From NCBI GenBank assembly GCA_963703285.1, contig OY969807.1, positions 1,440,001 through 1,504,000 on the forward strand: a stretch of 64,000 nt of DNA, read 5' to 3'. The stretch is from an uncultured Nitrososphaerota archaeon (GTDB lineage: Archaea; Thermoproteota; Nitrososphaeria; Nitrososphaerales; Gagatemarchaeaceae). Shown here piece by piece: positions 1 to 12,023 of the stretch (the first letter of the stretch is position 1; each line of letters starts with the position of its first letter). The position numbers and the translations under genes are program-made. The notes under the pieces were generated by a model, which made no database searches, was not told the origin of the DNA, and saw only the letters and a list, made by a program, of their open reading frames with translations.

Positions 1-372
1 CCCGTGAAGGAGCAGGAGGGCATCGTCGGCAGGACGAAGCTAGACGACATCGAGCTGGAGGACTCTGTGAAGCCGAGCTTCGCCCACAACGCGCTGGCGA
101 AGGTGGTGAGGGATGGGGAGCAGGTTGACATACTCCGGGACAACATGGCCTTCGGCCAAGCGGGGTTCGGCGAGTTCGGGACGTACTTCATCGGCTACAG
201 CAGGTCACCTGGCACGACGGAGGAGATGCTCCAGAACATGTTCGTCGGCAAGCCTCCCGGCAACTACGACAGGCTGCTGGACTTCAGCCGAGCCGTCACG
301 GGCAGCCTCTTCTTCGCGCCCTCGGCCACCTTCTTGGAGAGGGCCTCCAAGGTCGAACGTAGGACGGCCTGA
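1..372 (+). CDS. Dyp-type (dye-decolorizing) peroxidase, C-terminal part; 5' end lies outside the window
   Basis: Motifs GRTKLDDIEL, proximal His (AHN), ILRDNMAFG, GTYFIGY, NYDRLLDFS and TGSLFFAPS. Confidence 0.9.
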   Translation, partial: PVKEQEGIVGRTKLDDIELEDSVKPSFAHNALAKVVRDGEQVDILRDNMAFGQAGFGEFGTYFIGYSRSPGTTEEMLQNMFVGKPPGNYDRLLDFSRAVTGSLFFAPSATFLERASKVERRTA

Positions 373-497
373 TTCGCACCGGGGTTTGCCTGACTGTGTC
401 TGCTCGAGCGGGTTCTGTCGCCTGAAATGGTCGATTTGCAATCCAAGGTCACGGGCGTCACGGAAGAATAGCGCGACCGTCTCGCAATCTCGAGCTC

Positions 498-2552
498 TCA
501 GGAGGTCGCCTGCTGGCGTCGGACATTCCTGCGCCCCTTCCTCCTTCTCACTGCCAAGAACCCCGAGACCACCCCGAGACCCGCAATCCCTCCGACCGCC
601 GCGGCCTGAGGGAACGAGGTCGTCAGATGTTCGGCGACGCTCACAACGTCGCTGAGTGGGGCGAGGACTGGTTTCATGTAGCTGTCCACCACGTTGACCG
701 CATCAGAGAGTGGGGCCGTCACAGGAGCGACGTACTGGTCAACGGCTTTGACGACATCGGAGAGCGTCGCCACAGCAGGAGCGACGTACTGGTCAACGGC
801 TTTGACGACATCGGAGAGCGTCGCCACAGCAGGAGCGACGTAGGCGTCGCCTATGCTAACGGAATCTGTCAAGGGTGAGTTCACGGGAGGGGTGACTACA
901 TCTGCCGCAGCCACCGTATCCTGAAGAGTGGCTGTTACCGTCACGCCTTGGGGATAGACCGTGAGCGTAAAGACGCCCGCGCACGGCGAGGATATGTAGG
1001 GGTAGCAGGAGGTCCCGCCGTACAGGAGAGCCTCTCCGACCATTATCGTGTAGACTCCTGGCGACACAGAGGCTGAGGCCGTTATGGCCAGCCCGAACTC
1101 CCCGAGCGGCGGGGCTCCGGACTCCTCGAAGGGGTAGAACGTCAACGAAATCCCTGGCACCGGAGGAGACACCGAGTAGGCATAGACGGCCGTCGCGGGG
1201 GCTTCGCCGATGATCGTCCCGGTGACGAGAACGGGGAAGGAGTTGCCGATTCCGGCGAAGGCGGTCCCTGAATTCGGCGTCAGGGATACCAACTCCACCA
1301 CGTCTGCAACGGGCTCGACGGTGAGCTGGTATGTCGGTCGGACGCAAGAGCCCGAGCAGTCGGTCCCCGCGACAAAGAGCTCGTCATCAACTGTGATAGT
1401 GTAGATTCCAGCTGGAGCCGCTGGAGTAACTGTGATGACCATCGTGAAGATGGTGGAGGGTGGCGATCCAACGTCGTATCCAGGGTTGAAGGAGACGGAG
1501 ACGCCCGCCGGGTCCCCGCTGACGCTGGCCAGGGGAACTTCGCCGTCGACGTAGCCTCCGCTGACCTTGGGAGTCAGTGTCGAGTAGAGTGTGCCGCCGA
1601 TGCCCCCCGTGACCTCGCCCGACGTCGCGCTGAGGGTCAGGCTCGTCACCACGTCGTTGGACTGGAGGACGATTGTGGTCGAGGTTGAGGATGAGGAGGA
1701 TGAGGAGGAAGAGGAGGAAGAGGAGGAAGAGGAGGAAGAGGAGGAAGAGGAGGAAGAGGAGGAAGAGGAGGAAGAGGAGGAAGAGGAGGAAGAGGAGGAA
1801 GAGGACACTCCGGATGGCTCCAGTGCGATTCCTACTTCGGCCCAAGTGACCGATGAATCCATCGGAAGGGTCGCCGGGAATTCCGTGGGATTGGCTGCGC
1901 CACCATTGGAGTACTCCGCTACACCCGACTCTGCGGCGTCGTTCAACGGGGTCGAGAACGTGAACCCGGTCGCCGCGGTCGGACTAGACAATTCTTGCGT
2001 CCCAATCATGCCTAGAAGAAAGGCGCCGCTCTGGAACGATACAAGTCCGGGGTATGTCACAATCGAGGAGCCCGCCCCGATGCCGGTTGCAACCCCGATT
2101 CCCGAAGAGGTAACTCCCGAAATTTCGTAGATATAGAGGGCTGACTGTATGCTTGCGTAGGGGTTACTCCAAGTTATCATGACTTCATCAGAGCCGCCAC
2201 TTGTGAGAGCGGCGTAGTATACGTAGGTGCACACAGGATCGTTGCACGTTGACCCGGCTAGAGAGTATGACGATCCCAAAGTGTCGGTCACGGAGGTAAC
2301 GGAATCACCGTAGGTTGCCACGCCTACCACGACGATGTCTCCGCTGGCCACGCCGTCAGTGAATGTCGCCGACAGAGCGCACGACATCGACTCCCCGCAA
2401 CCGCTACTGGTCTGCTGGACGAGCGACGAATCGGCTCTAACCAGTGGGGCGTTAGCCAGCACCGAGACAAGAAAGATCAAGAAGACGACCAGGACTGCGA
2501 GCGCGGGGAACCTGAATCCTACAGGTTTTCGCGGCTTATTTGACTGGGTCAT
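498..2552 (-). CDS. Secreted, C-terminally anchored cell-surface protein with poly-Ser linker and 18-aa repeats
   Basis: N-terminal signal peptide; beta-rich Ser/Thr domains; ~40-Ser tract; LSDVVKAVDQYVAPAVAT repeats; C-terminal TM helix followed by RRRKGRR. Confidence 0.8.
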   Translation of the reverse strand: MTQSNKPRKPVGFRFPALAVLVVFLIFLVSVLANAPLVRADSSLVQQTSSGCGESMSCALSATFTDGVASGDIVVVGVATYGDSVTSVTDTLGSSYSLAGSTCNDPVCTYVYYAALTSGGSDEVMITWSNPYASIQSALYIYEISGVTSSGIGVATGIGAGSSIVTYPGLVSFQSGAFLLGMIGTQELSSPTAATGFTFSTPLNDAAESGVAEYSNGGAANPTEFPATLPMDSSVTWAEVGIALEPSGVSSSSSSSSSSSSSSSSSSSSSSSSSSSSSSSSSSSSSSSSTSTTIVLQSNDVVTSLTLSATSGEVTGGIGGTLYSTLTPKVSGGYVDGEVPLASVSGDPAGVSVSFNPGYDVGSPPSTIFTMVITVTPAAPAGIYTITVDDELFVAGTDCSGSCVRPTYQLTVEPVADVVELVSLTPNSGTAFAGIGNSFPVLVTGTIIGEAPATAVYAYSVSPPVPGISLTFYPFEESGAPPLGEFGLAITASASVSPGVYTIMVGEALLYGGTSCYPYISSPCAGVFTLTVYPQGVTVTATLQDTVAAADVVTPPVNSPLTDSVSIGDAYVAPAVATLSDVVKAVDQYVAPAVATLSDVVKAVDQYVAPVTAPLSDAVNVVDSYMKPVLAPLSDVVSVAEHLTTSFPQAAAVGGIAGLGVVSGFLAVRRRKGRRNVRRQQATS
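722..842. repeat. 54-bp tandem repeat (two identical copies plus a partial third) encoding 18-aa units
   Basis: caggagcgacgtactggtcaacggctttgacgacatcggagagcgtcgccacag at 722 and 776; partial copy from 830. Confidence 0.9.
1702..1800. repeat. (GAGGAGGAA)x11 in-frame tandem repeat encoding poly-Ser on the minus strand
   Basis: Eleven perfect 9-bp units read directly. Confidence 0.95.
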
Positions 2553-2704
2553 GGTGTCACTTCCGGCCAGCCCAGAGCGACAGGAAACATTATGGCGCCA
2601 TCGGTGGCGAAGGTGAACAGCTCGGCCGCGCAGGCTAAGGCTCGGTCCGTCGCCAGCAAACTAATGCAGGAGACTCCAAGCCAGCCCGTCTCACTCAACT
2701 CATC

Positions 2705-3472
2705 TCAGGATACCGTGAACTGGATCGTGACGAGCATCGAGTCTCCGGCGGCGACCGAGATGGGAGTCGGGACGGTGAGAATGTCGAATGCAGCGTTACC
2801 TATACCATAGCTCGGGTTCGCCATTTGCGAGAGAGGTCCAGCGCCGGCCTCCAGGACCGCACATGGAGTTTGCGATATGTCGTAGATGCAGTTAGTCGCT
2901 GTGAATGTCGTCGGGCCGAATGTCGCCTGGGTTATCCAGCCACTACAGAGGGGTCCCGTGGGGGCCGGGGTGCCAGCGTTCGGGTCACACCCCAGCGGTG
3001 TGAGGATATTCGTTGCCGCAGCGTTAGCCTGACATCCGGTGACGCTGAAACCGTTTTCCGTTTCCGCTCCGGCGTTCTCTGAACAAGTTCCGCCTATGAA
3101 GGGGTAGCTCGCCGGAGCGAAGACAATCGCGACGCCGTTGATGAACGAGGAACAGGAGCCGTTAGCAGGCGTCGAAGCTGGTCCTACGGGGTCGGTGCTG
3201 CCTCCAACAGACCCCGGTATGCACGCAGCGATTGCGTTGACCGCGATGTTGGTCAAGGGGTCCGGACCGGTCCACGTGGATACCACCTTGCCGTCCGGCG
3301 CCACGACCTTGATCGTCTCCGTGCCGCTGAGGTACAGACCGTCAGTCACTTTTCCGCTTGTATTCGTATTGAGAACGTTCGACAACACGGTCGAACCGAG
3401 AAGGACACCGATAGCTAGACTTCCGACAACGACAAGCGAGACCTTCGCCTTGGACGAAAGCTGCAAATGCAA
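2705..3472 (-). CDS. Secreted or membrane-anchored Cys-rich beta protein, hypothetical
   Basis: N-terminal hydrophobic segment, several Cys, terminal beta-strand GDSMLVTIQFTVS; co-oriented upstream of the 684-aa surface protein. Confidence 0.7.
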   Translation of the reverse strand: MHLQLSSKAKVSLVVVGSLAIGVLLGSTVLSNVLNTNTSGKVTDGLYLSGTETIKVVAPDGKVVSTWTGPDPLTNIAVNAIAACIPGSVGGSTDPVGPASTPANGSCSSFINGVAIVFAPASYPFIGGTCSENAGAETENGFSVTGCQANAAATNILTPLGCDPNAGTPAPTGPLCSGWITQATFGPTTFTATNCIYDISQTPCAVLEAGAGPLSQMANPSYGIGNAAFDILTVPTPISVAAGDSMLVTIQFTVS

Positions 3473-3537
3473 CTAAGCGCATATAACTTATGACATAAAA
3501 GTCTTCTGGAACATGAATACGAATGTTTCCTTTCGCT

Positions 3538-3680
3538 GAGGTGTGTCGAATAACTGGAAGTTTAGTCGCACTTGAATTAAATCCGCCAGAAAGAAAGCGC
3601 AGAATTGACACCCTTGTACCAATCGGTCGACCTGAAATAGTCCGAGTTCACGGTAAACGGCGAGTTATTCGACACACCTC
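3538..3680. mobile_element. MITE-like non-autonomous element, 143 bp
   Basis: Perfect 18-bp terminal inverted repeats gaggtgtgtcgaataact (3538-3555) and agttattcgacacacctc (3663-3680); flanking direct repeat tttcgct (3531-3537, 3681-3687). Confidence 0.85.
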
Positions 3681-4022
3681 TTTCGCTGTGAAGAGAAGGC
3701 TTCCGCCAATTCGTAGGTGTGACGGATTCGAACTCGAGAACCCCCTGAAAGTTCCGTTATGTGTCAGGAGATTCTCGCTGGATTCGATTCTTGCTGACCG
3801 CCAATGCTCCTCCACCATCGTGATAGGAGTTCCGAGTTCCATCGAGAACTCGCGTGAGTTGTGAATATTGTAAAGGCTCAAATGTGGTTCAAAGAGCCTC
3901 CTTGGTAACGTACAGGGCGATGAACAAGAACGAGTAGTCTCTAAGCGTCATCGAGCGGTATGGACCGTCCTCGCAACGTTTTTCTAACATATGCCAACCA
4001 CGACGCGACAACCGCCTTGGTA

Positions 4023-4553
4023 ATGGTCTTCCAGGTAGCCGCGCCGGCGGGACTGGCTGACGCTGTCTATGGGGTGGTCGCGGCGCTGCTCATCACGGGC
4101 GCCGTGATTGCCTTGCTCTCATTGAGGGCTGGGAAGGAGAAGAGGGTGAAGCTACTCGTCGTCGGCGTTGTGGTGCTCGTGGCTGGCGGGGGCGTCTTCT
4201 TCGTCTCCAACCCCACCCATCAGGACTCGATAAGAGTCGGATCAGGTTCCGTCCAGGTCTCCACTTCTTTCTTCAACGTCAACGTCACCTCGAACCAGAT
4301 ATCCCGAGCCTTCGTCGTCAACTTCTCCAACTGGAATGTCTCGATAACCTCGAGGACCGACGGGTCGGCGTTCGGCTCGTTTCACTCCGGGTTCTTCTCG
4401 CTTTCCAACGGGGCCAAGGCCGAAGTGCTTACCACCGAAGACACCAACTTGGTAGTGGTGCTCGACAGCGGCACCTATCTCATCCTCGGCCCGTCAGACT
4501 TTCAGTCGTTTCTGAACTCGTTCAGCCAGTCAGTGATGCAGGTCTCCGGTTGA
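4023..4553 (+). CDS. Membrane protein with bacterial PH-like (bPH_5-type) domain
   Basis: Two N-terminal TM helices then RTDGSAFGSFHSGFFSLSNG motif; start uncertain (ORF track gives 3960). Confidence 0.65.
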   Translation: MVFQVAAPAGLADAVYGVVAALLITGAVIALLSLRAGKEKRVKLLVVGVVVLVAGGGVFFVSNPTHQDSIRVGSGSVQVSTSFFNVNVTSNQISRAFVVNFSNWNVSITSRTDGSAFGSFHSGFFSLSNGAKAEVLTTEDTNLVVVLDSGTYLILGPSDFQSFLNSFSQSVMQVSG

Positions 4554-4763
4554 CTCACAGTTCAGCCGTCCCGGCTAGTCTCATCAACCCGAGCTGAAGC
4601 GTGGTGTCCGGACGAATTTTCGTTTGCCACGGATTCCTGCGAGAACCCCAATCGCCACAGCGGTTCTGCAATTCCTGATTCTGCGAATTCCGGTTTCTAG
4701 CCCTTTCAAACGGGGTAAGCATCATGCTCAAACCAGGTGCAAACCGTGACTTGCGAGTTTGTA

Positions 4764-4783
4764 TGGTGCGGGGGGTGGGATTC
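4764..4783 (-). repeat. att-like exact duplication of the tRNA-Leu 3' end (site S1)
   Basis: tggtgcggggggtgggattc is identical to 7621-7640. Confidence 0.9.
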
Positions 4784-4832
4784 CAGCCCTAATTTGCTGG
4801 TAAATAGTAAACCGATAAGAATCGTTTGTAGT

Positions 4833-4875
4833 CTGGTGAGCTCGACCAGTATACTTTCGTCTGATAGATTTGAAT
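4833..4875 (-). repeat. Degenerate att-like site (S5), homologous to the site at 5650-5695
   Basis: ctggtgagc-tcgaccagtatactttcgt versus ctggtgagcttcgaccagtatgctttcgt, each followed by gattt. Confidence 0.75.
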
Positions 4876-4920
4876 CATAATTAGGAATAGACCAGGTTTC
4901 GGGGAGGAGTGTCCACAATC

Positions 4921-5349
4921 CTACCTCAAATCCCCTTTGAAGATCCACTGGACGCCATACTTATCATAGAACTGCCCATACATTCCGAATGGCATTTCGT
5001 GCAACTCCTGGAACCGCGATTTTTCTGCTCTTGCCGCAAGTTTGTCAAAGACTCTTTTCAGCTCCTCGTATGCTCCACCGATAACAAATACAGCGTATGA
5101 ATTCCCCTGTTTCCACTCAAGTGCAGGGGAAGCCATCCAGTCTGTTGCAGAAATTTCTAAATCACCGCTTTTCAATTGAGCATTTATGATTCTGTCGTGC
5201 TTTTCTTTTGGGAACTGGGCTTTCATGGGGGTATCGCCAACCTTCGTGAGCTTCAGGTCTCCGCCAAGACATTCGTGGTAAAATGTCAGGACTTCTGCAC
5301 AATTTCCGTCAAACAGAAGGAATGGCGTGCAACGCAACATGTTGTTCAC
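4921..5349 (-). CDS. VOC family / PhnB-like protein
   Basis: PFLLFDGNC..LTFYHECLGG at the N-terminus and PFGMYGQFYDKYGVQW at the C-terminus; AT-richer than the core genes. Confidence 0.9.
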   Translation of the reverse strand: MNNMLRCTPFLLFDGNCAEVLTFYHECLGGDLKLTKVGDTPMKAQFPKEKHDRIINAQLKSGDLEISATDWMASPALEWKQGNSYAVFVIGGAYEELKRVFDKLAARAEKSRFQELHEMPFGMYGQFYDKYGVQWIFKGDLR

Positions 5350-5403
5350 CTTAGTCCTTTGGCATTGTCCATATTAATGATATCATGTTTTGGACCAAAA
5401 TCA

Positions 5404-5424
5404 GTGGGGCCGGTGAGATTCGAA
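5404..5424 (-). repeat. tRNA 3'-end-like att site (S2)
   Basis: gtggggccggtgagattcgaa is the reverse complement of a T-loop, T-stem and acceptor strand. Confidence 0.7.
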
Positions 5425-5469
5425 AAGTAGCAGGCAGTAATGGGAGTCAAGCAGTGACTTGCTTCGGCT

Positions 5470-5626
5470 TCGTCGTGAACAGCCTCCTCTCCTCGTCGCT
5501 GAGAAAGTTATAGCAAGGATACGAGCACCGACACCGAACGAGGAGTACTTCCTGATGACCTTCTTCGGGTTCCTCGTTATCGGCCTTTATTTCATGGGGA
5601 AAATCACCAAGCGAACTCGGACCTAA
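5470..5626 (+). pseudogene. Possible decayed 3' fragment of a membrane protein gene
   Basis: Frame PNEEYFLMTFFGFLVIGLYFMGKITKRTRT* with host-like codons and no clear start. Confidence 0.35.
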
Positions 5627-5640
5627 AGGAAGTCGAAAAG

Positions 5641-5695
5641 TCGGCGGGGCTGGTGAGCTTCGACCAGTATGCTTTCGTTTTTTGGATTTGGATTA
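5641..5695 (-). repeat. tRNA 3'-end-like att site (S3) with arm motif
   Basis: ggcggggctggtgagcttcga followed by ccagtatgctttcgt, shared with S5. Confidence 0.7.
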
Positions 5696-5975
5696 ACCCT
5701 CAGACGAGGCTAAAACTTGCGTGACAAAATGGATGAGCCCATGAGCAATCAGCTTTGATGTAGTGGTTAACCGCTCCTTATACTTCGATACCTGAGTAAA
5801 GGTATAACGAACCCAATCTGTAAAGTACCTCATCTGTATTCTGCCCGTTCGAAATGGAGTGAGGGAAAGAAAACAATTGGGCCATTCCGAGGAAAAGGGA
5901 TTGCTTTGGAGATTTAGTCTATCGAGGGGTTTAATAGATATCCAAAAGATCAGGATAGATACTCGACGAGATGGG

Positions 5976-7199
5976 CTACCTGGTCAGGGGTTTATTCCTC
6001 TTTCTTCCCAGAGGTGAGCGCGCCACCGCAAGAATCACTCCGATCTGGACGAGCACTAGCACTATGTAGGAGACCGGGAGTGATGTGCTAGAAGCTGCGC
6101 TTGTTGTAGTAGACGTAGCAGAGGTGACCTCAGTGGCCGTCGAGGAGGCAACTGAGCCGGAGACCACAAAGACCTTGCTGGAGCCATCACTCACGAACAG
6201 CTCGCCCTTGCCCGAGTCGTAAGCCACGCCATCCGCACCGCCCGTACCGTATACGCCGCCTAGGGTCAGGTTCCCTACGACCGCGTTTGTAGAGTCGGAT
6301 ATCATGTAGACGACGGCGCCTACGCCAGTGGTCGCGAGGACATCTCCGCTGGCAGGGTCGTATGCCATGTTGTAGAGAGCAGGCCCCAAGACCAGGTTAG
6401 CCACCACTGTGTTCGTGGCGTCCGAAATCACTGTGACGTTGTTTGGAGCGGCACCGCCGTAGTTTGTGCCGACAAACATCTCGTCTCTAGCCGCGTCATA
6501 CGCCACGGTTGAAGGCCATTCCCCTACAGTCACGTTCGCAACGACCTTATTGTCGCTGTCAGAGATTACCGATACCGTATTGGACGATATCGGGCAATAA
6601 CCTGTGCAGGAGTCGGAATCGGCTACGTACAACTCTCCCTTGGTTGGATCGTACGCGATACCGTTAGGCCCGCTTCCCCCTGTCCCACTGCTCGCTATCG
6701 TAACGTTTGTGACTACGGTGTTCGTGCTATCCGAGATCACGGACACGGTGTTTGAGCCGTGGTTGGATACGAAGATCTCGCCCTTGGCTGAGTCATACGC
6801 TAGACCGGCAGGCCCGCTCCCCACCTTAACGGTTGCGACTACAGCGTTGGTACTGTCCGAAATCACGGACACGGTGTTTGAGCCGTAGTTTGATGCGAAG
6901 ACCTCGCCCTTGCTCGAATCATACGCCACCTGGACGGGGTCGCTCCCCGCGCTCACGTTCGCCACCACTGAGTTGGTGGCGTCGGATATTACGGCTACAG
7001 AGTTCGCGCCATATGCAGAGTCGGCGACGAAGACCTCGCCCTTCGCTGAATCGTATGCTAGGCCTCCGGGCCCGCCATGGACCGTCACGCTCGCAACCAC
7101 AGTCATGCTCGCTGCACTGGCCAACGGGACCTCAGCCGAAGCAAAGACCAGAAGTAGGAGGACTGTCAGGACGACCGCTGCGCGACCTGCGAAACGCAC
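5976..7199 (-). CDS. YVTN/YncE-type beta-propeller surface protein
   Basis: Signal peptide; repeated P.GLAYDSAKGE.FV.N.GSNTVSVISDSTN blades; Ser/Thr linker; C-terminal TM helix and basic tail. Confidence 0.9.
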   Translation of the reverse strand: MRFAGRAAVVLTVLLLLVFASAEVPLASAASMTVVASVTVHGGPGGLAYDSAKGEVFVADSAYGANSVAVISDATNSVVANVSAGSDPVQVAYDSSKGEVFASNYGSNTVSVISDSTNAVVATVKVGSGPAGLAYDSAKGEIFVSNHGSNTVSVISDSTNTVVTNVTIASSGTGGSGPNGIAYDPTKGELYVADSDSCTGYCPISSNTVSVISDSDNKVVANVTVGEWPSTVAYDAARDEMFVGTNYGGAAPNNVTVISDATNTVVANLVLGPALYNMAYDPASGDVLATTGVGAVVYMISDSTNAVVGNLTLGGVYGTGGADGVAYDSGKGELFVSDGSSKVFVVSGSVASSTATEVTSATSTTTSAASSTSLPVSYIVLVLVQIGVILAVARSPLGRKRNKPLTR

Positions 7200-7532
7200 C
7201 TACCGTCGTGCCAGACCCGAGTTATTATCGTTTTAGGGTACTTGCCGCTGCCGCCGAATTTGACCTCGTTGCTTCCTTCTTTAGCGCGGATGCCCCCTAT
7301 CAATTCCGCAGGGCCAGAGCTCTCAGTTTTTTGGTGCGTTAGAGAAACCCCACGGGCTAGAAGCCCGTGGTCCGCAAGCTTGTCACGTGATTCTTCCAAG
7401 GTTTCCGCGGGGCCCTCACTGGCCCTCTGTGCGCACAGGAGGGGTTGGTTCTGCCGTCGCTTGGGCCTGGCTCAATAGGCCGATGGGATTGCGTGTTTGG
7501 CCTAATAAAGACGCGGATTTGAATAGTATACT

Positions 7533-7573
7533 TGGTGCGGCCGGTGAGATTTGAGCCACAATTTACTAGTAAA
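7533..7573 (-). repeat. tRNA 3'-end-like att site (S4) with palindromic arm
   Basis: tggtgcggccggtgagatttgagcc (includes ACCA end on the minus strand) followed by the palindrome tttactagtaaa. Confidence 0.75.
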
Positions 7574-7620
7574 GTCGGGTGGAAATAAATCCACATTATC
7601 GAGCAATGAGACGCGAATTT

Positions 7621-7708
7621 TGGTGCGGGGGGTGGGATTCGAACCCACGAACCCCTAAGGGATTGGAGCCTCAGTCCAACGCCGTTGGCCATGCTGGGCG
7701 ACCCCCGC
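7621..7708 (-). tRNA. tRNA-Leu(GAG), CCA encoded
   Basis: Acceptor GCGGGGG/CCCCCGC; anticodon arm TTGGA-CT GAG GC-TCCAA; long variable arm; GTGGG TTCGAAT CCCAC. Confidence 0.95.
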
Positions 7709-7768
7709 GCGCTTGCCGCCTTGATTCCTGCGAATCTAAAACTCTTCCGAGTTACGGTCAGCGTCTAG

Positions 7769-7778
7769 ATTTTAAAAG
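7769..7778 (+). promoter_or_regulatory. TATA box upstream of tRNA-Thr
   Basis: attttaaaag about 26-35 nt upstream of the tRNA 5' end. Confidence 0.6.
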
Positions 7779-7803
7779 CGCGCCGGAGGGGGCGATGGGA
7801 CGT

Positions 7804-7899
7804 GCCGGCGTAGCTCAGTTGGTAGAGCGTGCGCCTCGTAAGCGCAAGGTCGAGGGATCGACACGGCTGGGAGCCGCGATAAACCCTCCGCCGGCTCCA
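7804..7899 (+). tRNA. tRNA-Thr(CGT) with a 20-nt non-canonical intron at position 59/60 (7863-7882), CCA encoded
   Basis: Acceptor GCCGGCG/CGCCGGC; anticodon arm TGCGC-CT CGT AA-GCGCA; T-arm interrupted by a strict BHB: GAGGG ATCG ACA CGGCT GGG AGCCG CGAT AAA CCCTC. Confidence 0.93.
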
Positions 7900-7928
7900 T
7901 ATTCACAGCGCATGAATGACTATCCAGT

Positions 7929-9281
7929 CTAGGGTCTAGGTACCTCGAGCAGGAGAGTTCTAATCACTTCGTCGTAGTCTACAAAAGAGAGAATTGCGTA
8001 GCCGCGAGCCATCCAAGGATTGTACTTGAAATCCTGTCGCAGCTTTCGGGTGAGTTTAAGGAGTTCTTCCTGAATGCAGAGTCCAAAGTCACGTCTTCTC
8101 CTAGTTGATATCATCCTCGTTTGAATTGCGACTTGAGCGTCTGTCGAGTAGAGGTCCTTACCACCCCTTGAAGGTTCTTCGATGACCAACTTTCGCAGGC
8201 CTAGATACTTCGCCCCGCACAGGTACGCTATCTCGGAACCTATTCGACCTTGGTCATAGACAGAACCTTCACGGAGCATCGTGCCTTCTAACTCTCTGTG
8301 CAGAATGACCGAGTCAACAATCATCGCATACGAACACTTTCCCTGAACCAAGTTGAGGTGCCTTCCCGAGTAACTGCGAGGCTGGACCAACCCGTAGAGT
8401 TCCTCAGAAGGAGGTTTGGCATAGCAGGTTGATACCGCGCTTTGCCGGCCATAATGAACCCTCAACCTGAATCCATCGAAGGAGAGCAGACTAACCGATT
8501 CACATCCAGCTCCACGATCGATTTGAATCTGTGGTGGATTCAATCCATCGTGTCGAATTCTCATCTTCCACACCCTCCCGATGTAATCGGCGAGTTTGAA
8601 CTGTAGGTAAACTCCTCCGTGTTGGTTGCTAACTCCTGGATATGCGTCGATAATGCCAGTCATTGTGAAGTAAGATAGGTTAGCTAGTGGATGGTCCTGA
8701 ACGACTTCTATCCGAATCTTATCATCAGCTATTGCGAATGATTCGAGTACGACCCGGTCCGCCGCCCATCTCACATTGCGGCGGTTCTCAAGCTCGAAGC
8801 TTGGGATGCCTGAGACAAACGATTCCCTCGACAACTGTTCGAGGGAGATTATGACGTCTTCTCCTGGAGCCGATCGGTCTCTCGGAAGCACAGGTCTGAA
8901 CTCGTTTCCTCCTTTGTACGTGTGATAGCTGAAGAACGAGCCTCCAGAATCGTGTACCTCAATCTTGACTGCGATTTGGTCATGATTGGACGAGGTGGAG
9001 GTTTCACGTACAATTCTCGAGTTTGACATACTGTCAAGCCGGCGTGCAGAGATGAATATCCTACCGTCACGCCCGATTTTGAAAGAATGAATTGTGTGAT
9101 TTGTCTGTTCTCTGAGTTGAGCTGAATCGGGTCGGAGATTCGGAAGCGTACGAAGGTACTCGCCCCAGAAATAAAAGCACCCATACGCTGCGTATAGAGC
9201 AGCAATCCTGCCTGTTCGGACAAAACTATTAATCACAAAAATCCTGAATTCCGCCCGTGAAGTAGGTGGAATTTTCGGCAA
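7929..9281 (-). CDS. Hypothetical protein with a possible C-terminal PD-(D/E)xK-like domain
   Basis: Long ORF of lower GC next to tRNA-Thr; GRIGSEIA...GGKDLY...IQTR pattern; true start may be ATG at 9029. Confidence 0.55.
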   Translation of the reverse strand: MPKIPPTSRAEFRIFVINSFVRTGRIAALYAAYGCFYFWGEYLRTLPNLRPDSAQLREQTNHTIHSFKIGRDGRIFISARRLDSMSNSRIVRETSTSSNHDQIAVKIEVHDSGGSFFSYHTYKGGNEFRPVLPRDRSAPGEDVIISLEQLSRESFVSGIPSFELENRRNVRWAADRVVLESFAIADDKIRIEVVQDHPLANLSYFTMTGIIDAYPGVSNQHGGVYLQFKLADYIGRVWKMRIRHDGLNPPQIQIDRGAGCESVSLLSFDGFRLRVHYGRQSAVSTCYAKPPSEELYGLVQPRSYSGRHLNLVQGKCSYAMIVDSVILHRELEGTMLREGSVYDQGRIGSEIAYLCGAKYLGLRKLVIEEPSRGGKDLYSTDAQVAIQTRMISTRRRRDFGLCIQEELLKLTRKLRQDFKYNPWMARGYAILSFVDYDEVIRTLLLEVPRP

Positions 9282-9363
9282 AAAGCCCTGAGCTTGGCGA
9301 CACGGAGGATTCTATCCAAGGGGATTTCGGGTCGATTCCGCTAGTCGAGAACGAACATACCCC

Positions 9364-10863
9364 ATGACGGAATCGATCCTGCGGCGCATCCCCCGACCGG
9401 AGGTCACGGCCGGGCTGGCTGTCTTCGCGTCGGCGTTCCTGATCTATCTGTTCACGGTGAACTCCGTCTGGGCGACCGACCACGCCACGAGCTTCCTCCA
9501 GCTCGACTGGGCGATATGGGTCCACCACTCCTTCGCGCTGGGCAGCGCCGGCAGCTTCCAGCCCAACTCCGTCGACGACTTCGTCTTCAAGGGGAACTAC
9601 TACAGCGCCCTCGCCCCGGGGACGGCGATACTCGCCCTCCCATTCGTGGGGGTGGGCTTCGCCCTGGACGGGCACTTCACCGTCTTCGGGTACGCGCTGA
9701 TGTCGTCCGAGGTCTTCGTCGCCCTGGTCAACTCCATAGCCGCCTACCTCGTCTACGCGCTCGCGAGGCTTTACTTCAGCAAGAAGACCGCGGTCTTCCT
9801 GGCGTTCGCCTACGCCTTCTCGACGGTCAGCTGGCCGTTCGCGGTCTACTTCTTCCAGAGCGACGTCACGGCCATGTTCGACCTTCTCGCGGTCTACTTC
9901 ACCATCAGGGTCACCCGCGACACAGTCGGCAACCACTCCCGCTACATACTCGTCGCGGGCATCTCAGCAGCCGCCGCCCTCACCACGGACTACGTCAGCG
10001 CGATACTGATACCGATAATAGCGGGGTACCTGGTCTTCTCGTTCCGCCGGAGACCGCGGGTTCTCGCAGGGCTCCTCACCGCCTTCCTCCTCTACTCGAT
10101 CGTTGGGATCGTGCTCATAGGGCTGTACAACGAGGCCGTCTTCGGCACCGCCTTCCACACTACCGAGCAGGTCTACCTCAGCAGCTCCACGCCGTTCGGG
10201 GAGTTCTCGACGCCGATCTACGAGGGCCTCTACCTAAACCTGTTCTCCCCGCTGAGGGGGCTGTTCGTCTACTCCATCTTCCTCGTCCTCGGGGTCTTCG
10301 GGCTGGCCGGGATGCTGAGGGAGAGGCTGCACAGGGAGGAGGCGGCCCTCATGCTGGCGTGCTTCCTAGGGATCCTCCTCCCCTATTCGGCGTGGTACGA
10401 CCCCGTGGGAGGGGCCGCGTTCGGCCCGCGCTTCCTCGTCGCGGCGGTCCCGTTCCTGCTCGTTCCGGCGGGGCTGGTCATTGAGGAAGGAACCCGAAAC
10501 ACCCGCATGGTCGCGTTCATCCTCTACGCGGTCGGGGTCGTCATCAGCGGAATCGCAGGTGTGACGGAGGGGATCGCGCCGACGATCAACTGGGGGCTGT
10601 CGCCCCTGCTCAGCTTCACGCTCCCCAACTTCTTGCGAGGAGAGCTCGACGACTGGTGGGTGAAGTTCGTCGGGCAGTACTGGCCCATCCCAGCCGCGCT
10701 TCTGATAGCCACGGCGGTCGCGCTTCCCATAGTCTCGAATCGTCTCCTGTCGAGGGATGAGAAGGAGGGCGACGTCGCTGGACCTCCGCAGGCCGGAGAA
10801 TCCGGAGGCGCGTCACCTAGTAGCCTATCTCCGAGCTCGGTCGGAGGTGACGCATCGACTTGA
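9364..10863 (+). CDS. Multi-pass membrane GT-C-like glycosyltransferase (PMT/ArnT-like)
   Basis: About 11 TM helices; YYSALAPG, SPLRGLFVYS and GGAAFGPRFL motifs. Confidence 0.7.
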   Translation: MTESILRRIPRPEVTAGLAVFASAFLIYLFTVNSVWATDHATSFLQLDWAIWVHHSFALGSAGSFQPNSVDDFVFKGNYYSALAPGTAILALPFVGVGFALDGHFTVFGYALMSSEVFVALVNSIAAYLVYALARLYFSKKTAVFLAFAYAFSTVSWPFAVYFFQSDVTAMFDLLAVYFTIRVTRDTVGNHSRYILVAGISAAAALTTDYVSAILIPIIAGYLVFSFRRRPRVLAGLLTAFLLYSIVGIVLIGLYNEAVFGTAFHTTEQVYLSSSTPFGEFSTPIYEGLYLNLFSPLRGLFVYSIFLVLGVFGLAGMLRERLHREEAALMLACFLGILLPYSAWYDPVGGAAFGPRFLVAAVPFLLVPAGLVIEEGTRNTRMVAFILYAVGVVISGIAGVTEGIAPTINWGLSPLLSFTLPNFLRGELDDWWVKFVGQYWPIPAALLIATAVALPIVSNRLLSRDEKEGDVAGPPQAGESGGASPSSLSPSSVGGDAST

Positions 10864-10984
10864 CGCGGCCGCACCTCTTGCACTTGTACTCGCCCCTTCC
10901 CCGCGGGTTGTACCTCCTTGTGTCCACTACGAGCTCGTGCTCCGTCCTCATCATGCACTTCTCGCAGTACCTGTACTCGACCAA
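10817..10984 (-). CDS. Small zinc-ribbon protein (55 aa), not in the ORF track
   Basis: TTG start; MVEYRYCEKCMMRTEHELVVDTRRYNPRGRGEYKCKRCGRVKSMRHLRPSSEIGY has two CxxC; tttaaata about 30 nt upstream. Confidence 0.75.
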   Translation of the reverse strand: MVEYRYCEKCMMRTEHELVVDTRRYNPRGRGEYKCKRCGRVKSMRHLRPSSEIGY

Positions 10985-11047
10985 CTCGGACTTCCCGCAA
11001 AGTGCTCTTCATCGTATTTAAAGCACCTCTCGTCTGGAATCGTCGCG

Positions 11048-11320
11048 ATGTCGGACCTGGGGCTCCTGGGTGTCGGTGTCTTCTTGGCCGGGGTGCTTGT
11101 CCTCATTCTGGCGACGGTCCTCTCGTCGCGCCCGAGGGAGAGGAGCGAGCGCGCGGGTGAAGGAGACGGGGAGAAGACCGGGGTGAAGGGGGGCAGCGTC
11201 GTCATGATAGGTCCGATACCGATCATCTTCGGGACGGATGCGAAGTGGACCGTGATAGCGATACTGCTCGCGATCGTACTCATCGTCCTGAGCATACTCC
11301 TCTCTGGTGGACTGAGATGA
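11048..11320 (+). CDS. DUF131 (TIGR00304) family membrane protein
   Basis: KGGSVVMIGPIPIIFGTD signature between TM helices. Confidence 0.88.
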   Translation: MSDLGLLGVGVFLAGVLVLILATVLSSRPRERSERAGEGDGEKTGVKGGSVVMIGPIPIIFGTDAKWTVIAILLAIVLIVLSILLSGGLR

Positions 11321-11574
11321 TGAACCCCTCGAGGCTTTACGCCCTCGGTCTTTTGCTTGTCTTCGCCGGGATAGCGCTGGTGGCTCTGGGGGGCCTCGGC
11401 ACGGGCTCGGCCTCCTTTGGCGGGGTGGTCTTTATCGGGCCCTTTCCAATCGTCTTCGGGAGCGGTCCCGGTTCCGGGCTGCTGGCGCTCACCACCCTGG
11501 TGATTGGCGCGGTCATGGTGGTCACGTTCTACCTGTTCGTCCTGCTCAGACGGAGACCAAGTGGGGAGCCCTAG
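11317..11574 (+). CDS. DUF131 (TIGR00304) family membrane protein, second copy
   Basis: GGVVFIGPFPIVFGSG; ATGA overlap with the preceding gene. Confidence 0.85.
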   Translation: MMNPSRLYALGLLLVFAGIALVALGGLGTGSASFGGVVFIGPFPIVFGSGPGSGLLALTTLVIGAVMVVTFYLFVLLRRRPSGEP

Positions 11575-11675
11575 GAGACCCCTCCTGTGCCCTGCGGTAT
11601 CCTAGAGCCTGCGACGGAACCGGCAGAACAATTTCAAATAAGACATAAATACCAAGTCCGGATTCCTTACCGTCT

Positions 11676-12023
11676 ATGCAGAAAGTAGTACCGATTGTGC
11701 AGTTCAGCGCTCCCGCGAGAGAGAAGCTGATGGAGGCTCTCAAGGGGGAGACCGGGGCCAACGCATTCCTGAGAATCGACGTTTACGCTTCGGGCGGCTG
11801 CGCCTGCAGCGGAGGTTACAAGTACGGAATGGGCCTGGAAGAGAAGGCAAGGCCCGATGACATCGTAGAGGAGATAGAGGACATCAAGGTCGTGACGGAC
11901 AAGAACAACGTTGACATCCTGAGGGGCTCCAAGATCGACTACAGCGAGACAGTCCAGCGGAGGGGCTTCAAGATAATCAACCCCAACGTCCAGGCGGGCG
12001 GCTGCGGCTGCGGCGGGCACTGA
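11676..12023 (+). CDS. HesB/IscA/SufA family Fe-S cluster assembly accessory protein
   Basis: GGCACSGGYKY, GSKIDY and F.I.NPN..GCGCG motifs. Confidence 0.92.
   Translation: MQKVVPIVQFSAPAREKLMEALKGETGANAFLRIDVYASGGCACSGGYKYGMGLEEKARPDDIVEEIEDIKVVTDKNNVDILRGSKIDYSETVQRRGFKIINPNVQAGGCGCGGH

Follow-up and report, generated by a model that had tools for sequence, protein, structure and literature searches.

How does a row of small units come to lie behind a tRNA gene, fenced off by copies of tRNA 3′ ends and accompanied by no integrase? The question is raised by a 64-kb stretch of DNA from an uncultured archaeon of the Nitrososphaerales (GenBank GCA_963703285.1, contig OY969807.1, positions 1,440,001 to 1,504,000; G000:C1:1440001-1504000 in our numbering), hereafter called the window, whose genome, G000, is a single 2.25-Mb contig that is 96% complete and has a guanine-plus-cytosine (GC) content of 60.6%. 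Five sites resembling tRNA 3′ ends (S1 to S5) lie in it downstream of a tRNA-Leu(GAG) gene, and a preliminary description, made from the window alone, had read them as tRNA-mimic attachment (att) sites bordering single-gene cassettes that are mobilised in trans, i.e., an integron analogue anchored on a tRNA. The reading that we consider rather likely is a related one: the segment 4764-7620 would be a composite insertion without an integrase, placed at the tRNA-Leu(GAG) 3′ end and built by site-specific recombination at tRNA-tail cores. Such insertions probably grow by the serial accretion of cargo-only modules moved in trans, a mobility judged here from comparative anatomy.

The segment is an insertion because the site is empty in two relatives (the comparison set comprises the 23 genomes of the genus, G000 included, mostly fragmented metagenome-assembled genomes, MAGs). 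The native flank of the locus (4588-4732) sits 37-116 nt from the 3′ end of tRNA-Leu(GAG) in G005 (contig C39, 77% over 121 nt) and in G010 (contig C1, 83% over 64 nt), and in neither does anything resembling 4764-7620 lie between flank and tRNA. At the far end of the segment, positions 4764-4783 (S1) equal 7621-7640, the reverse complement of the tRNA-Leu(GAG) 3′ end with its CCA, at 20/20 bases; both hallmarks of an element that targets tRNA genes, a direct repeat of the tRNA 3′ end and empty sites in relatives, are thus found here. The same tRNA gene is occupied in G014 (contig C8) by a 6.7-kb element with an integrase, the gene of which starts 8 nt past the tRNA, and the distal repeat of this element is followed by the ...AGTTTGTATGGTGCGGGGGG / ...AGTTTGTA flank, as at S1. 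Similar elements of ~7-8 kb, each with an integrase of ~412 aa, sit at tRNA-Leu(CAG) in G000 itself and at tRNA-Leu genes in G021 and G001.

The sites inside the insertion have a core in common with tRNA tails. The sequence GGTGRGMTTYGA occurs four times in the window (5412, 5652, 7543 and 7631), always on the + strand and within 2.3 kb, with 0.09 copies expected by chance and four copies reached in 0/100 shuffles; the whole genome has 20 matches. All five sites were located where they had been placed, S1 and S5 departing from this core as reported, and in S5 the core is truncated (CTGGTGAGC-TCGACC) with its acceptor part missing. In total, six tRNA-tail sites lie within 3.9 kb of tRNA-Leu(GAG). 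The acceptor strands of S2, S3 and S4 do differ from that of the resident tRNA-Leu, but the variant Leu identity suggested for them gave way to a tRNA-Pro(GGG)-like one: S2 shows one mismatch in 19 bases to the 3′ end of that tRNA gene of the same genome (1923378-1923471), S3 and S4 are likewise Pro-like, and S4, taken together with the ~85 nt on its left, has 75% identity to the 3′ end of tRNA-Pro plus the flank downstream of it. By the arms adjoining the core the sites fall into classes, with arm A common to S1 and S4 (~20 nt), arm B common to S3 and S5 (~45 nt) and arm C at S2. All site classes split from each other and from the tRNA right after GGTGAGMTTYGA and, on the other side, at the acceptor end, which delimits a common core of ~18 nt that runs from the middle of the T-loop to the discriminator. 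S4 is a hybrid: its left arm, L1 (7448-7532, ...GGATTTGAATAGTATACT), is of a kind also found next to class B sites and tRNA-Pro, its core (7533-7554) is chimeric, with Leu-like TGGTGCGG followed by Pro-like CCGGTGAGATTTGA, and arm A begins at 7555. It is 81-84% identical to sites in G021 (contig C6) and G002 (contig C83), and the core and arm A of S1 are 92% identical to positions 4120-4156 of contig C80 of G005.

Between these sites the units are as first described: a VOC gene, an NHL-repeat beta-propeller gene (with homologs at 96% in G003, 91% in G014 and 89% in G005) and three small units, of ~49 bp (4784-4832), ~215 bp (5424-5640) and 63 bp. The gene remnant noticed in the ~215-bp unit is confirmed: positions 5447-5512 on the - strand hold the last 21 codons and the stop of an FtsK/HerA/TraG-like ATPase gene (...YNFLSDEERRLFTTKPKQVTA*), which is intact, with 649 aa, in G001 (contig C73; locus L040, 8078-10027). 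The class C arm piece to which it belongs has many copies in the genus. The same unit contains a 23-codon hydrophobic open reading frame (ORF) with a basic tail (MTFFGF...KRTR.; 5555-5626, +), with a counterpart at ~4870-4941 of L040; the two copies compared, each in a truncated class C unit, are conserved and show several synonymous changes, and the product could be a small membrane peptide.

A site profile, as suggested in the preliminary description, found more such sites in relatives. A sequence-only model, R1, built from 14 class B sites (~65 nt), gave 105 matches at E<=0.01 in 17 of the 23 genomes, 58 of them with E<1e-8 (in 12 genomes), and revealed long arrays in G021, where all sites of a run lie on one strand (12/12 on contig C6, 171-195 kb; 14/14 on contig C3), mostly 0.7-2.7 kb apart. 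Pairs of class B sites 0.8-2.1 kb apart are also seen on unrelated metagenome contigs. Across the order the model matched this family alone (G000 and 1/14 others), with 0/106 genomes matched in 19 other families, and an exact-pattern scan of species genomes returned seven stretches, all from Nitrososphaerales or Nitrososphaerota/Thaumarchaeota MAGs. The class B consensus reads [GGATTYGAAT AGTATACT nnnn] GGGGCCGGTGAGCTTCGACC AGTATACT TTCGTTnnnn GGATTTGAAT TnTTCATTTGGAATAA, and three GAnnTYGA motifs ~30 nt apart can be made out by eye in the alignments. RNAalifold predicted 0 pairs for the 14 aligned class B sites (strand as aligned), i.e., no attC-like fold, and no terminal inverted repeats were visible by eye.

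Each interval of the G021 arrays holds one to three ORFs in mixed direction relative to the sites, and the products have unrelated accessory functions: a pyridine-nucleotide oxidoreductase with DsrE, alpha/beta hydrolases, a cation-efflux protein (CDF), an LCM methyltransferase, zinc-ribbon proteins, TetR with SDR, NHL, RibD_C, HTH proteins and a DNA-alkylation repair protein, with no recombinase among the cassettes examined. The sites on contig C3 lie downstream of tRNA-Pro(GGG) in the orientation of the tRNA, and the first unit behind it (6.2 kb; TrkA, CLC channel, P-type ATPase) has no recombinase either; sites on contig C109 of G001 are placed likewise relative to tRNA-Pro. For the contig C6 array a tRNA anchor was sought and not found, with no tRNA in 160-200 kb, none within 30 kb on the upstream side and the nearest at ~142.4 kb on the other strand. 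The proposed integron analogue on a tRNA is supported in part by the long arrays, and is weakened by the array with no tRNA nearby, by the lack of an attC fold and by the mixed orientation. Homologs of the contig C6 array genes (64-79%) are scattered over contigs and positions in sister genomes that have no sites, which rules out that the arrays are invaded syntenic blocks and bears on how cassettes are born.

G000 itself has a second array (597234-600900; locus L002), in which three sites of a further class, F, ~820-860 bp apart, follow an intron-bearing Leu-like tRNA. Its four units are putative toxin-antitoxin modules (an AbrB/MraZ-like+PIN pair, Fic/DOC, YafQ-like and PIN), the first two unmatched (E<=1e-10) in the remaining 22 genomes and the third present in G002, G003 and G021. 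A third strong class B site of G000 (1952144-1952221, -; 61 bits; locus L003) stands ~2.3 kb from NHL-repeat genes that are 64-75% identical to the window propeller and ~29 kb from tRNA-Pro(GGG), in opposite orientation to it. Elsewhere (2145816-2148880), the 25-nt tail of a tRNA, CCA included (GGTTCAAATCCTGCCGGGCCCGCCA), has an exact copy 2.9 kb downstream on the same strand; between the two stand three ORFs, of 269, 283 and 378 aa, with no integrase among them, and another, partial copy is found at 2166073.

Single units and arms recur in different contexts. The VOC cassette of the window is found on contig C6 of G021 at 88% DNA identity, from the S5-type core through the gene to window position 5403; beyond it both flanks are unrelated, and the next site is of class C in the window and a degenerate one of another class in G021. 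Run X5, from another study, yielded a contig over 4845-5520 that has 12 differences from the window and parts from it within S5. The pair of outer arms is reused as well: contig C80 of G005 has, at tRNA-Leu(TAG), the proximal arm (81% over window 7562-7710, tRNA included) and an inner arm A-like site, then 3.8 kb of unrelated cargo that encodes low-complexity proteins of 326 and 631 aa and no integrase, and finally arm A and core, while in G015 (contig C19) the proximal arm and arm A stand beside a third tRNA-Leu gene (77% over 7547-7662). The left arm L1 is joined to arm B at at least four sites in G021, to arm A at S4 and to a tRNA-Pro T-arm pseudo-fragment on contig C3 of G021 (116654); L1-like sequence also adjoins tRNA-Pro itself, and for arm B at least six different left-arm partners are seen. 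The supposed tRNA mimics are real junctions of att type: they have an 18-nt core in common, their arms are interchangeable, and the units they border are integrase-less. That these units are single-gene cassettes with fixed boundaries applies to the VOC unit, which ends at cores; it does not extend to the S2-S3 unit, an ATPase-element end, or to the NHL unit, where the limits of homology miss S3 and S4 and fall inside the unit. The coordinates are collected in the table.

Table. Features of the tRNA-Leu(GAG) locus (window coordinates)
Feature	Position	Strand	Remarks
Class F site, tRNA-Leu-like 3′ fragment (GGATTCGAACTCGAGAACCCC...AAAGTTCC)	3714..3782	+	acceptor part degenerate; same orientation as S1-S5
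bPH_5-domain gene	3960..4553	+	Pfam; between class F site and conserved flank; variable among relatives
Native flank of tRNA-Leu(GAG) locus	4588..4732	.	directly beside the tRNA in relatives
S1, distal att junction: tRNA-Leu 3′-end copy, then arm A and rest of ~49-bp empty unit	4764..4832	+	
S5, class B with truncated core; start of VOC cassette	4833..4891	+	model R1 46.4 bits, E 3.6e-12
VOC/glyoxalase-fold (PhnB-like) cargo gene	4921..5349	-	Pfam PF06983, PF00903
S2 core, tRNA-Pro(GGG)-like; end of VOC cassette	5404..5423	+	18/19 bases
Class C arm, decayed end of larger element	5424..5629	.	S2-S3 unit
S3, full class B site: core and arm CCAGTATGCTTTCGT...GGATTTGGAT	5630..5707	+	model R1 65.4 bits, E 4.2e-18
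NHL-repeat beta-propeller cargo gene	5976..7199	-	Pfam PF01436; hydrophobic segment at each end (by eye)
S4, hybrid junction	7448..7557	+	L1 left arm, chimeric core, arm A
63-bp tRNA-proximal arm	7558..7620	+	conserved beside other tRNA-Leu genes in relatives
tRNA-Leu(GAG), anchor	7621..7708	-	ARAGORN; Rfam RF00005, 49.8 bits; 3′ end faces the array (lower coordinates)

The surroundings of the insertion are themselves variable. The class F site beyond the native flank shows one mismatch to the class F arm that is seen three times behind the tRNA at 597 kb, and a 79% match on contig C39 of G005, 4.5 kb off the tRNA-Leu flank of that genome; it is probably the trace of an earlier layer of the island. 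The bPH_5 gene is also found at contig ends in G010 (87%) and G002 (83%) and is absent from the G005 locus, where 4.5 kb of other DNA takes its place. GC is ~0.42-0.47 over 4800-5400 (200-bp windows) against 0.606 genome-wide, and is also low in 1-kb bins over ~2500-9300, around the diverging tRNA-Leu and tRNA-Thr genes. Four ORFs of the island (498-2552, 2705-3472, 3523-3864 and 7929-9281) have no match in Pfam or PHROG. The tRNA-Thr(CGU) gene (7804-7900, +) was overlooked by ARAGORN and scores 28.9 bits in Rfam (threshold 29); it apparently has an extra ~20 nt inside the T-loop, with the insert elsewhere in the G005 ortholog. Just downstream of it, the 450-aa ORF at 7929-9281 (-) occupies a low-GC stretch of ~1.3 kb that is absent from G005 and G010 and has a 68% match in G014; a direct repeat of the tRNA-Thr 3′ end was looked for downstream of 7900 and none was found.

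Which recombinase could act on these sites? As reported before, the window has no integrase: neither PF00589 nor PF16795 was matched in it. The search with two integrases by tblastn gave a best E of 1.5 against window positions 1-12000 and nothing below E 0.044 against 225,123 bases of array loci. In the whole of G000, PF16795 (for the SSV-type split integrase) was unmatched, one serine recombinase (685876-686262) lies far from the arrays, no Y1 transposase was found, and the sole PF00589 match (1627840-1628340) is 180 kb away, so that this model detects no separate chromosome resolvase of the XerA type. That match belongs to the 7.7-kb element at tRNA-Leu(CAG) (1627356-1635071; locus L001), which bears the only tyrosine recombinase of the genome, a protein of 412 aa encoded at 1627363-1628601 and ending in a C-terminal zinc ribbon, along with a 642-aa FtsK/HerA-like ATPase and a 324-aa ORF (PHROG ‘DNA topoisomerase’, E 5.7e-74; no Pfam match; no PDB sequence match below E 0.89). 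The closest homologs of this integrase are labelled Nitrososphaerota or Thaumarchaeota archaeon. With the same Leu core as its target, this integrase is the obvious candidate to act on the S1/tRNA pair. In the genus, a PF00589 match occurs within 10 kb on the same contig for 1/105 class B sites, and the integrase concerned lies in an element with its own, different att at another tRNA, the class B site being 30 nt past the element end; 5 of the 23 genomes have no PF00589 match at all.

A mechanism that would join these observations can be proposed. Every junction would consist of a left arm, the core and a right arm, with arms of different classes meeting at one core position, as recombination between a resident site and circular modules carrying one att each would produce. 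Strand exchange would fall somewhere between the middle of the T-loop and the acceptor end. The outer unit, of class A, would be bounded by S1 on one side and by the tRNA, the 63-bp arm and the inner site S4 on the other, and three smaller modules would make up its cargo: the VOC cassette between S5 and S2, the ATPase-element stub between S2 and S3, and the NHL cassette between S3 and S4. A lineage-specific family with ends built on the last ~18 nt of tRNA-Pro(GGG) would be the source of these inner modules. As S1 is a perfect Leu-type site and the inner sites are Pro-type, the inner modules cannot have entered singly through the tRNA-Leu core; in the simplest history the class A unit, with its 63-bp arm and its inner and outer arm A sites, would have docked first at tRNA-Leu(GAG), and a block of Pro-type modules would then have joined into the class A inner site. 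Both junctions fit such a joining, S4 with L1, a chimeric core and arm A, and S5 with class A sequence, a truncated core and arm B. The modules would already have been without integrase when they moved, the enzyme presumably being a tyrosine integrase supplied in trans, for which the likeliest helpers would be the ~7-kb elements at tRNA-Leu genes of the genus, including the one at tRNA-Leu(GAG) in G014. Toxin-antitoxin modules may help to keep the arrays.

For the mobilisation in trans proposed in the preliminary description, no direct sign was found. The read-level check for circles and deletions used Logan contigs in place of raw reads, and no circular or clean deletion junctions were seen in these contigs (the few joints listed, such as 5424 to 5757 and 5694 to 5757, had short sides of 22-32 letters and came from class B sites of other organisms, and were discounted); nor was a matching recombinase found. 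Several further observations weigh against the accretion of mobile modules. A recombinase with tRNA-Pro specificity was not found, PF00589 standing beside tRNA-Pro(GGG) in 0 of the 15 genomes (of 23) in which that tRNA gene was matched, and, apart from a loose CTTTCG..TCGA motif, the arms of the integrase-bearing elements are unlike arms A and B. The G014 NHL gene is inverted relative to the nearest sites, and most of the relatives are known from fragmented MAGs. Other observations of this kind are those expected if the locus were a fossil island, i.e., if its units were integrase-bearing tRNA elements that have lost their integrase and replication genes and now form an immobile, vertically inherited graveyard, which is a possibility that we regard with some doubt. 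In the S2-S3 unit an ATPase-bearing element survives as a truncated end, and decay of a larger element counts against a pure cassette model. Decay does occur, as among 29 contigs found by pattern one from a metagenome (L070) has, at 1.1 kb from a class B site, an 87-aa stub of an integrase C-terminus; NHL-gene homology to G003 and G014 ends at 5954/5768 and 7278/7331 instead of at S3/S4, and that to G005 likewise inside the unit; and with the S5 core truncated and the S4 core chimeric, several sites may be dead. According to a review (PMC8371274), integrase-less integrated elements of archaea presumably arise by loss of the integrase gene, and the islands of Prochlorococcus tycheposons (bioRxiv 10.1101/2020.12.28.424599) contain degenerate elements and scattered partial tRNAs too. 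Against a graveyard of this sort, the 225 kb of arrays yielded no integrase fragment, and an integrase-bearing class B unit is seen at none of the 105 genus sites or of 27 sites on metagenome and genome contigs. Decay from an autonomous element is visible for the S2-S3 unit; for the other units tblastn found no integrase remnant. Many units keep their arms up to the core on both sides, which repeated independent deletions would rarely leave. The integrase-less VOC unit occurs in at least two neighbourhoods with its limits at cores, and two class A units have common arms and different cargo.

It might also be asked whether the ~65-nt sites are att sites at all, or are substrates of homologous recombination or dispersed short repeats, either regulatory or like miniature inverted-repeat transposable elements (MITEs), with the ‘cassettes’ being ordinary genes that happen to lie between them. 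The intergenic position of the sites and the homologs of array genes elsewhere in the genus (64-79%) agree with such a view, and 65-150 nt of similarity could allow an occasional homologous exchange. We hold it to be improbable, since the site orientation is uniform (12/12 and 14/14) regardless of gene direction, the core is a tRNA 3′ end, S1 and the tRNA form a classic integration repeat with the site empty in relatives, the terminal inverted repeats of MITEs (by eye) and a consensus fold are lacking, and the dispersal of array-gene homologs in site-less genomes speaks against invaded syntenic blocks. A mis-joining of repeats near tRNA genes in a metagenome-derived genome would fit the breaks that contigs of relatives often show near these loci, and among the pieces of runs X1 and X2 listed none bridges S1/S5 or S4/tRNA. 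That the locus is an assembly artefact of this kind is hardly credible, however, given that the genome is a single contig, that S2 and S3 are bridged without a single difference by independent contigs of X1 and X2 (although the assembly itself may stem from these runs), and that the same architecture is present in other genomes and metagenome contigs. Accretion of integrase-less modules at tRNA-tail cores remains the reading that we favour.

Among known systems, partial tRNA genes are familiar scars of integration (PMC9897764), and the closest bacterial parallels are tandem accretion at tRNA genes and tRNA islands. Cis-mobilizable elements (CIMEs) of the ICESt1 family in Firmicutes have att sites on both sides, lack integration and transfer genes and stand in tandem at a tRNA 3′ end (PMC5704250), as do the units here: S1...tRNA, S5...S2 and S3...S4 keep att on both sides without such genes. 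An integrase-bearing relative can use the same site as a CIME (PMC5704250), just as the G014 element sits at the same tRNA. CIMEs are decayed integrative and conjugative or integrative and mobilizable elements, usually one or two per site (PMC5704250), whereas up to 12-14 sites stand in a row here, the units have one to three genes, no integrase remnants were seen, a ~65-nt site is kept across species, the host is an archaeon and the units have no known conjugation genes. In the Prochlorococcus tycheposon islands, which hold flexible genes, serial integration at a tRNA pushes older material outward (bioRxiv 10.1101/2020.12.28.424599); scattered partial tRNAs are found there and, in DNA of low GC, also here. 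The tycheposons counted in that study have a recombinase and a replication module of their own, and the partial tRNAs are irregular leftovers (bioRxiv 10.1101/2020.12.28.424599), in contrast to the conserved arms of the partial tRNAs described here and their regularly bounded, small, cargo-only units. The integrated elements of Thaumarchaeota come from the same phylum and show tRNA 3′-end integration, reuse of sites and short att, with a median length of 17 bp that is close to the ~18-nt core (PMC6563490). The ~7-kb integrase elements fit the cryptic ones among them, and 4764-7620 has no integrase of its own; the thaumarchaeal elements are complex and multigene, and in the part of that survey considered here, supplementary tables aside, no integrase-less arrays of 1-2 kb with conserved arms are described.

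As in integrons, short unrelated accessory units, toxin-antitoxin units included, alternate with a conserved site of recombination type, and the spacing of 0.7-2.7 kb and the one to three ORFs per unit would suit an integron array, the mixed gene direction less so. Unlike in integrons, there is no IntI beside the array and no folded attC-like site, the gene orientation is mixed, and the site derives from a tRNA tail. Because of the mixed orientation and the missing fold, the comparison is one of function and not of membership; archaeal integrons have been defined by IntI and attC, and the word ‘tRNA’ appears nowhere in the main text of that study (PMC9668308). The finding is an archaeal variant of tandem accretion and tRNA islands with integron-like traits, and no published description of regular archaeal arrays of one-to-three-gene, integrase-less units with a ~65-nt tRNA-tail site was found in the parts of the literature covered here (supplements aside).

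A bolder proposal, which we put forward tentatively and think unlikely as a whole, is that a family of soil and peat Nitrososphaerales has evolved a gene-collecting platform of its own, independent of integrons. It would use duplex att sites made of tRNA-Pro and tRNA-Leu tails with conserved arms, at which cargo-only circles of one to three genes would dock serially behind tRNA genes or the 63-bp and arm A site, being shuffled by the integrase of the ~7-kb elements or by extrachromosomal helpers, with chromosomal genes recruited as cassettes. The 18-nt core, the ~65-nt sites and the one resident integrase are defined substrates for tests of such ideas. For annotation, partial tRNA copies with conserved arms can flag the borders of small islands that are overlooked by integrase-seeded searches. 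If the units do move without a recombinase of their own, this would be a case of integron-like gene collecting in archaea that is independent of IntI and attC, and it would, if true, provide a concrete mechanism for the flexible genome of the abundant Nitrososphaerales of soil and peat.

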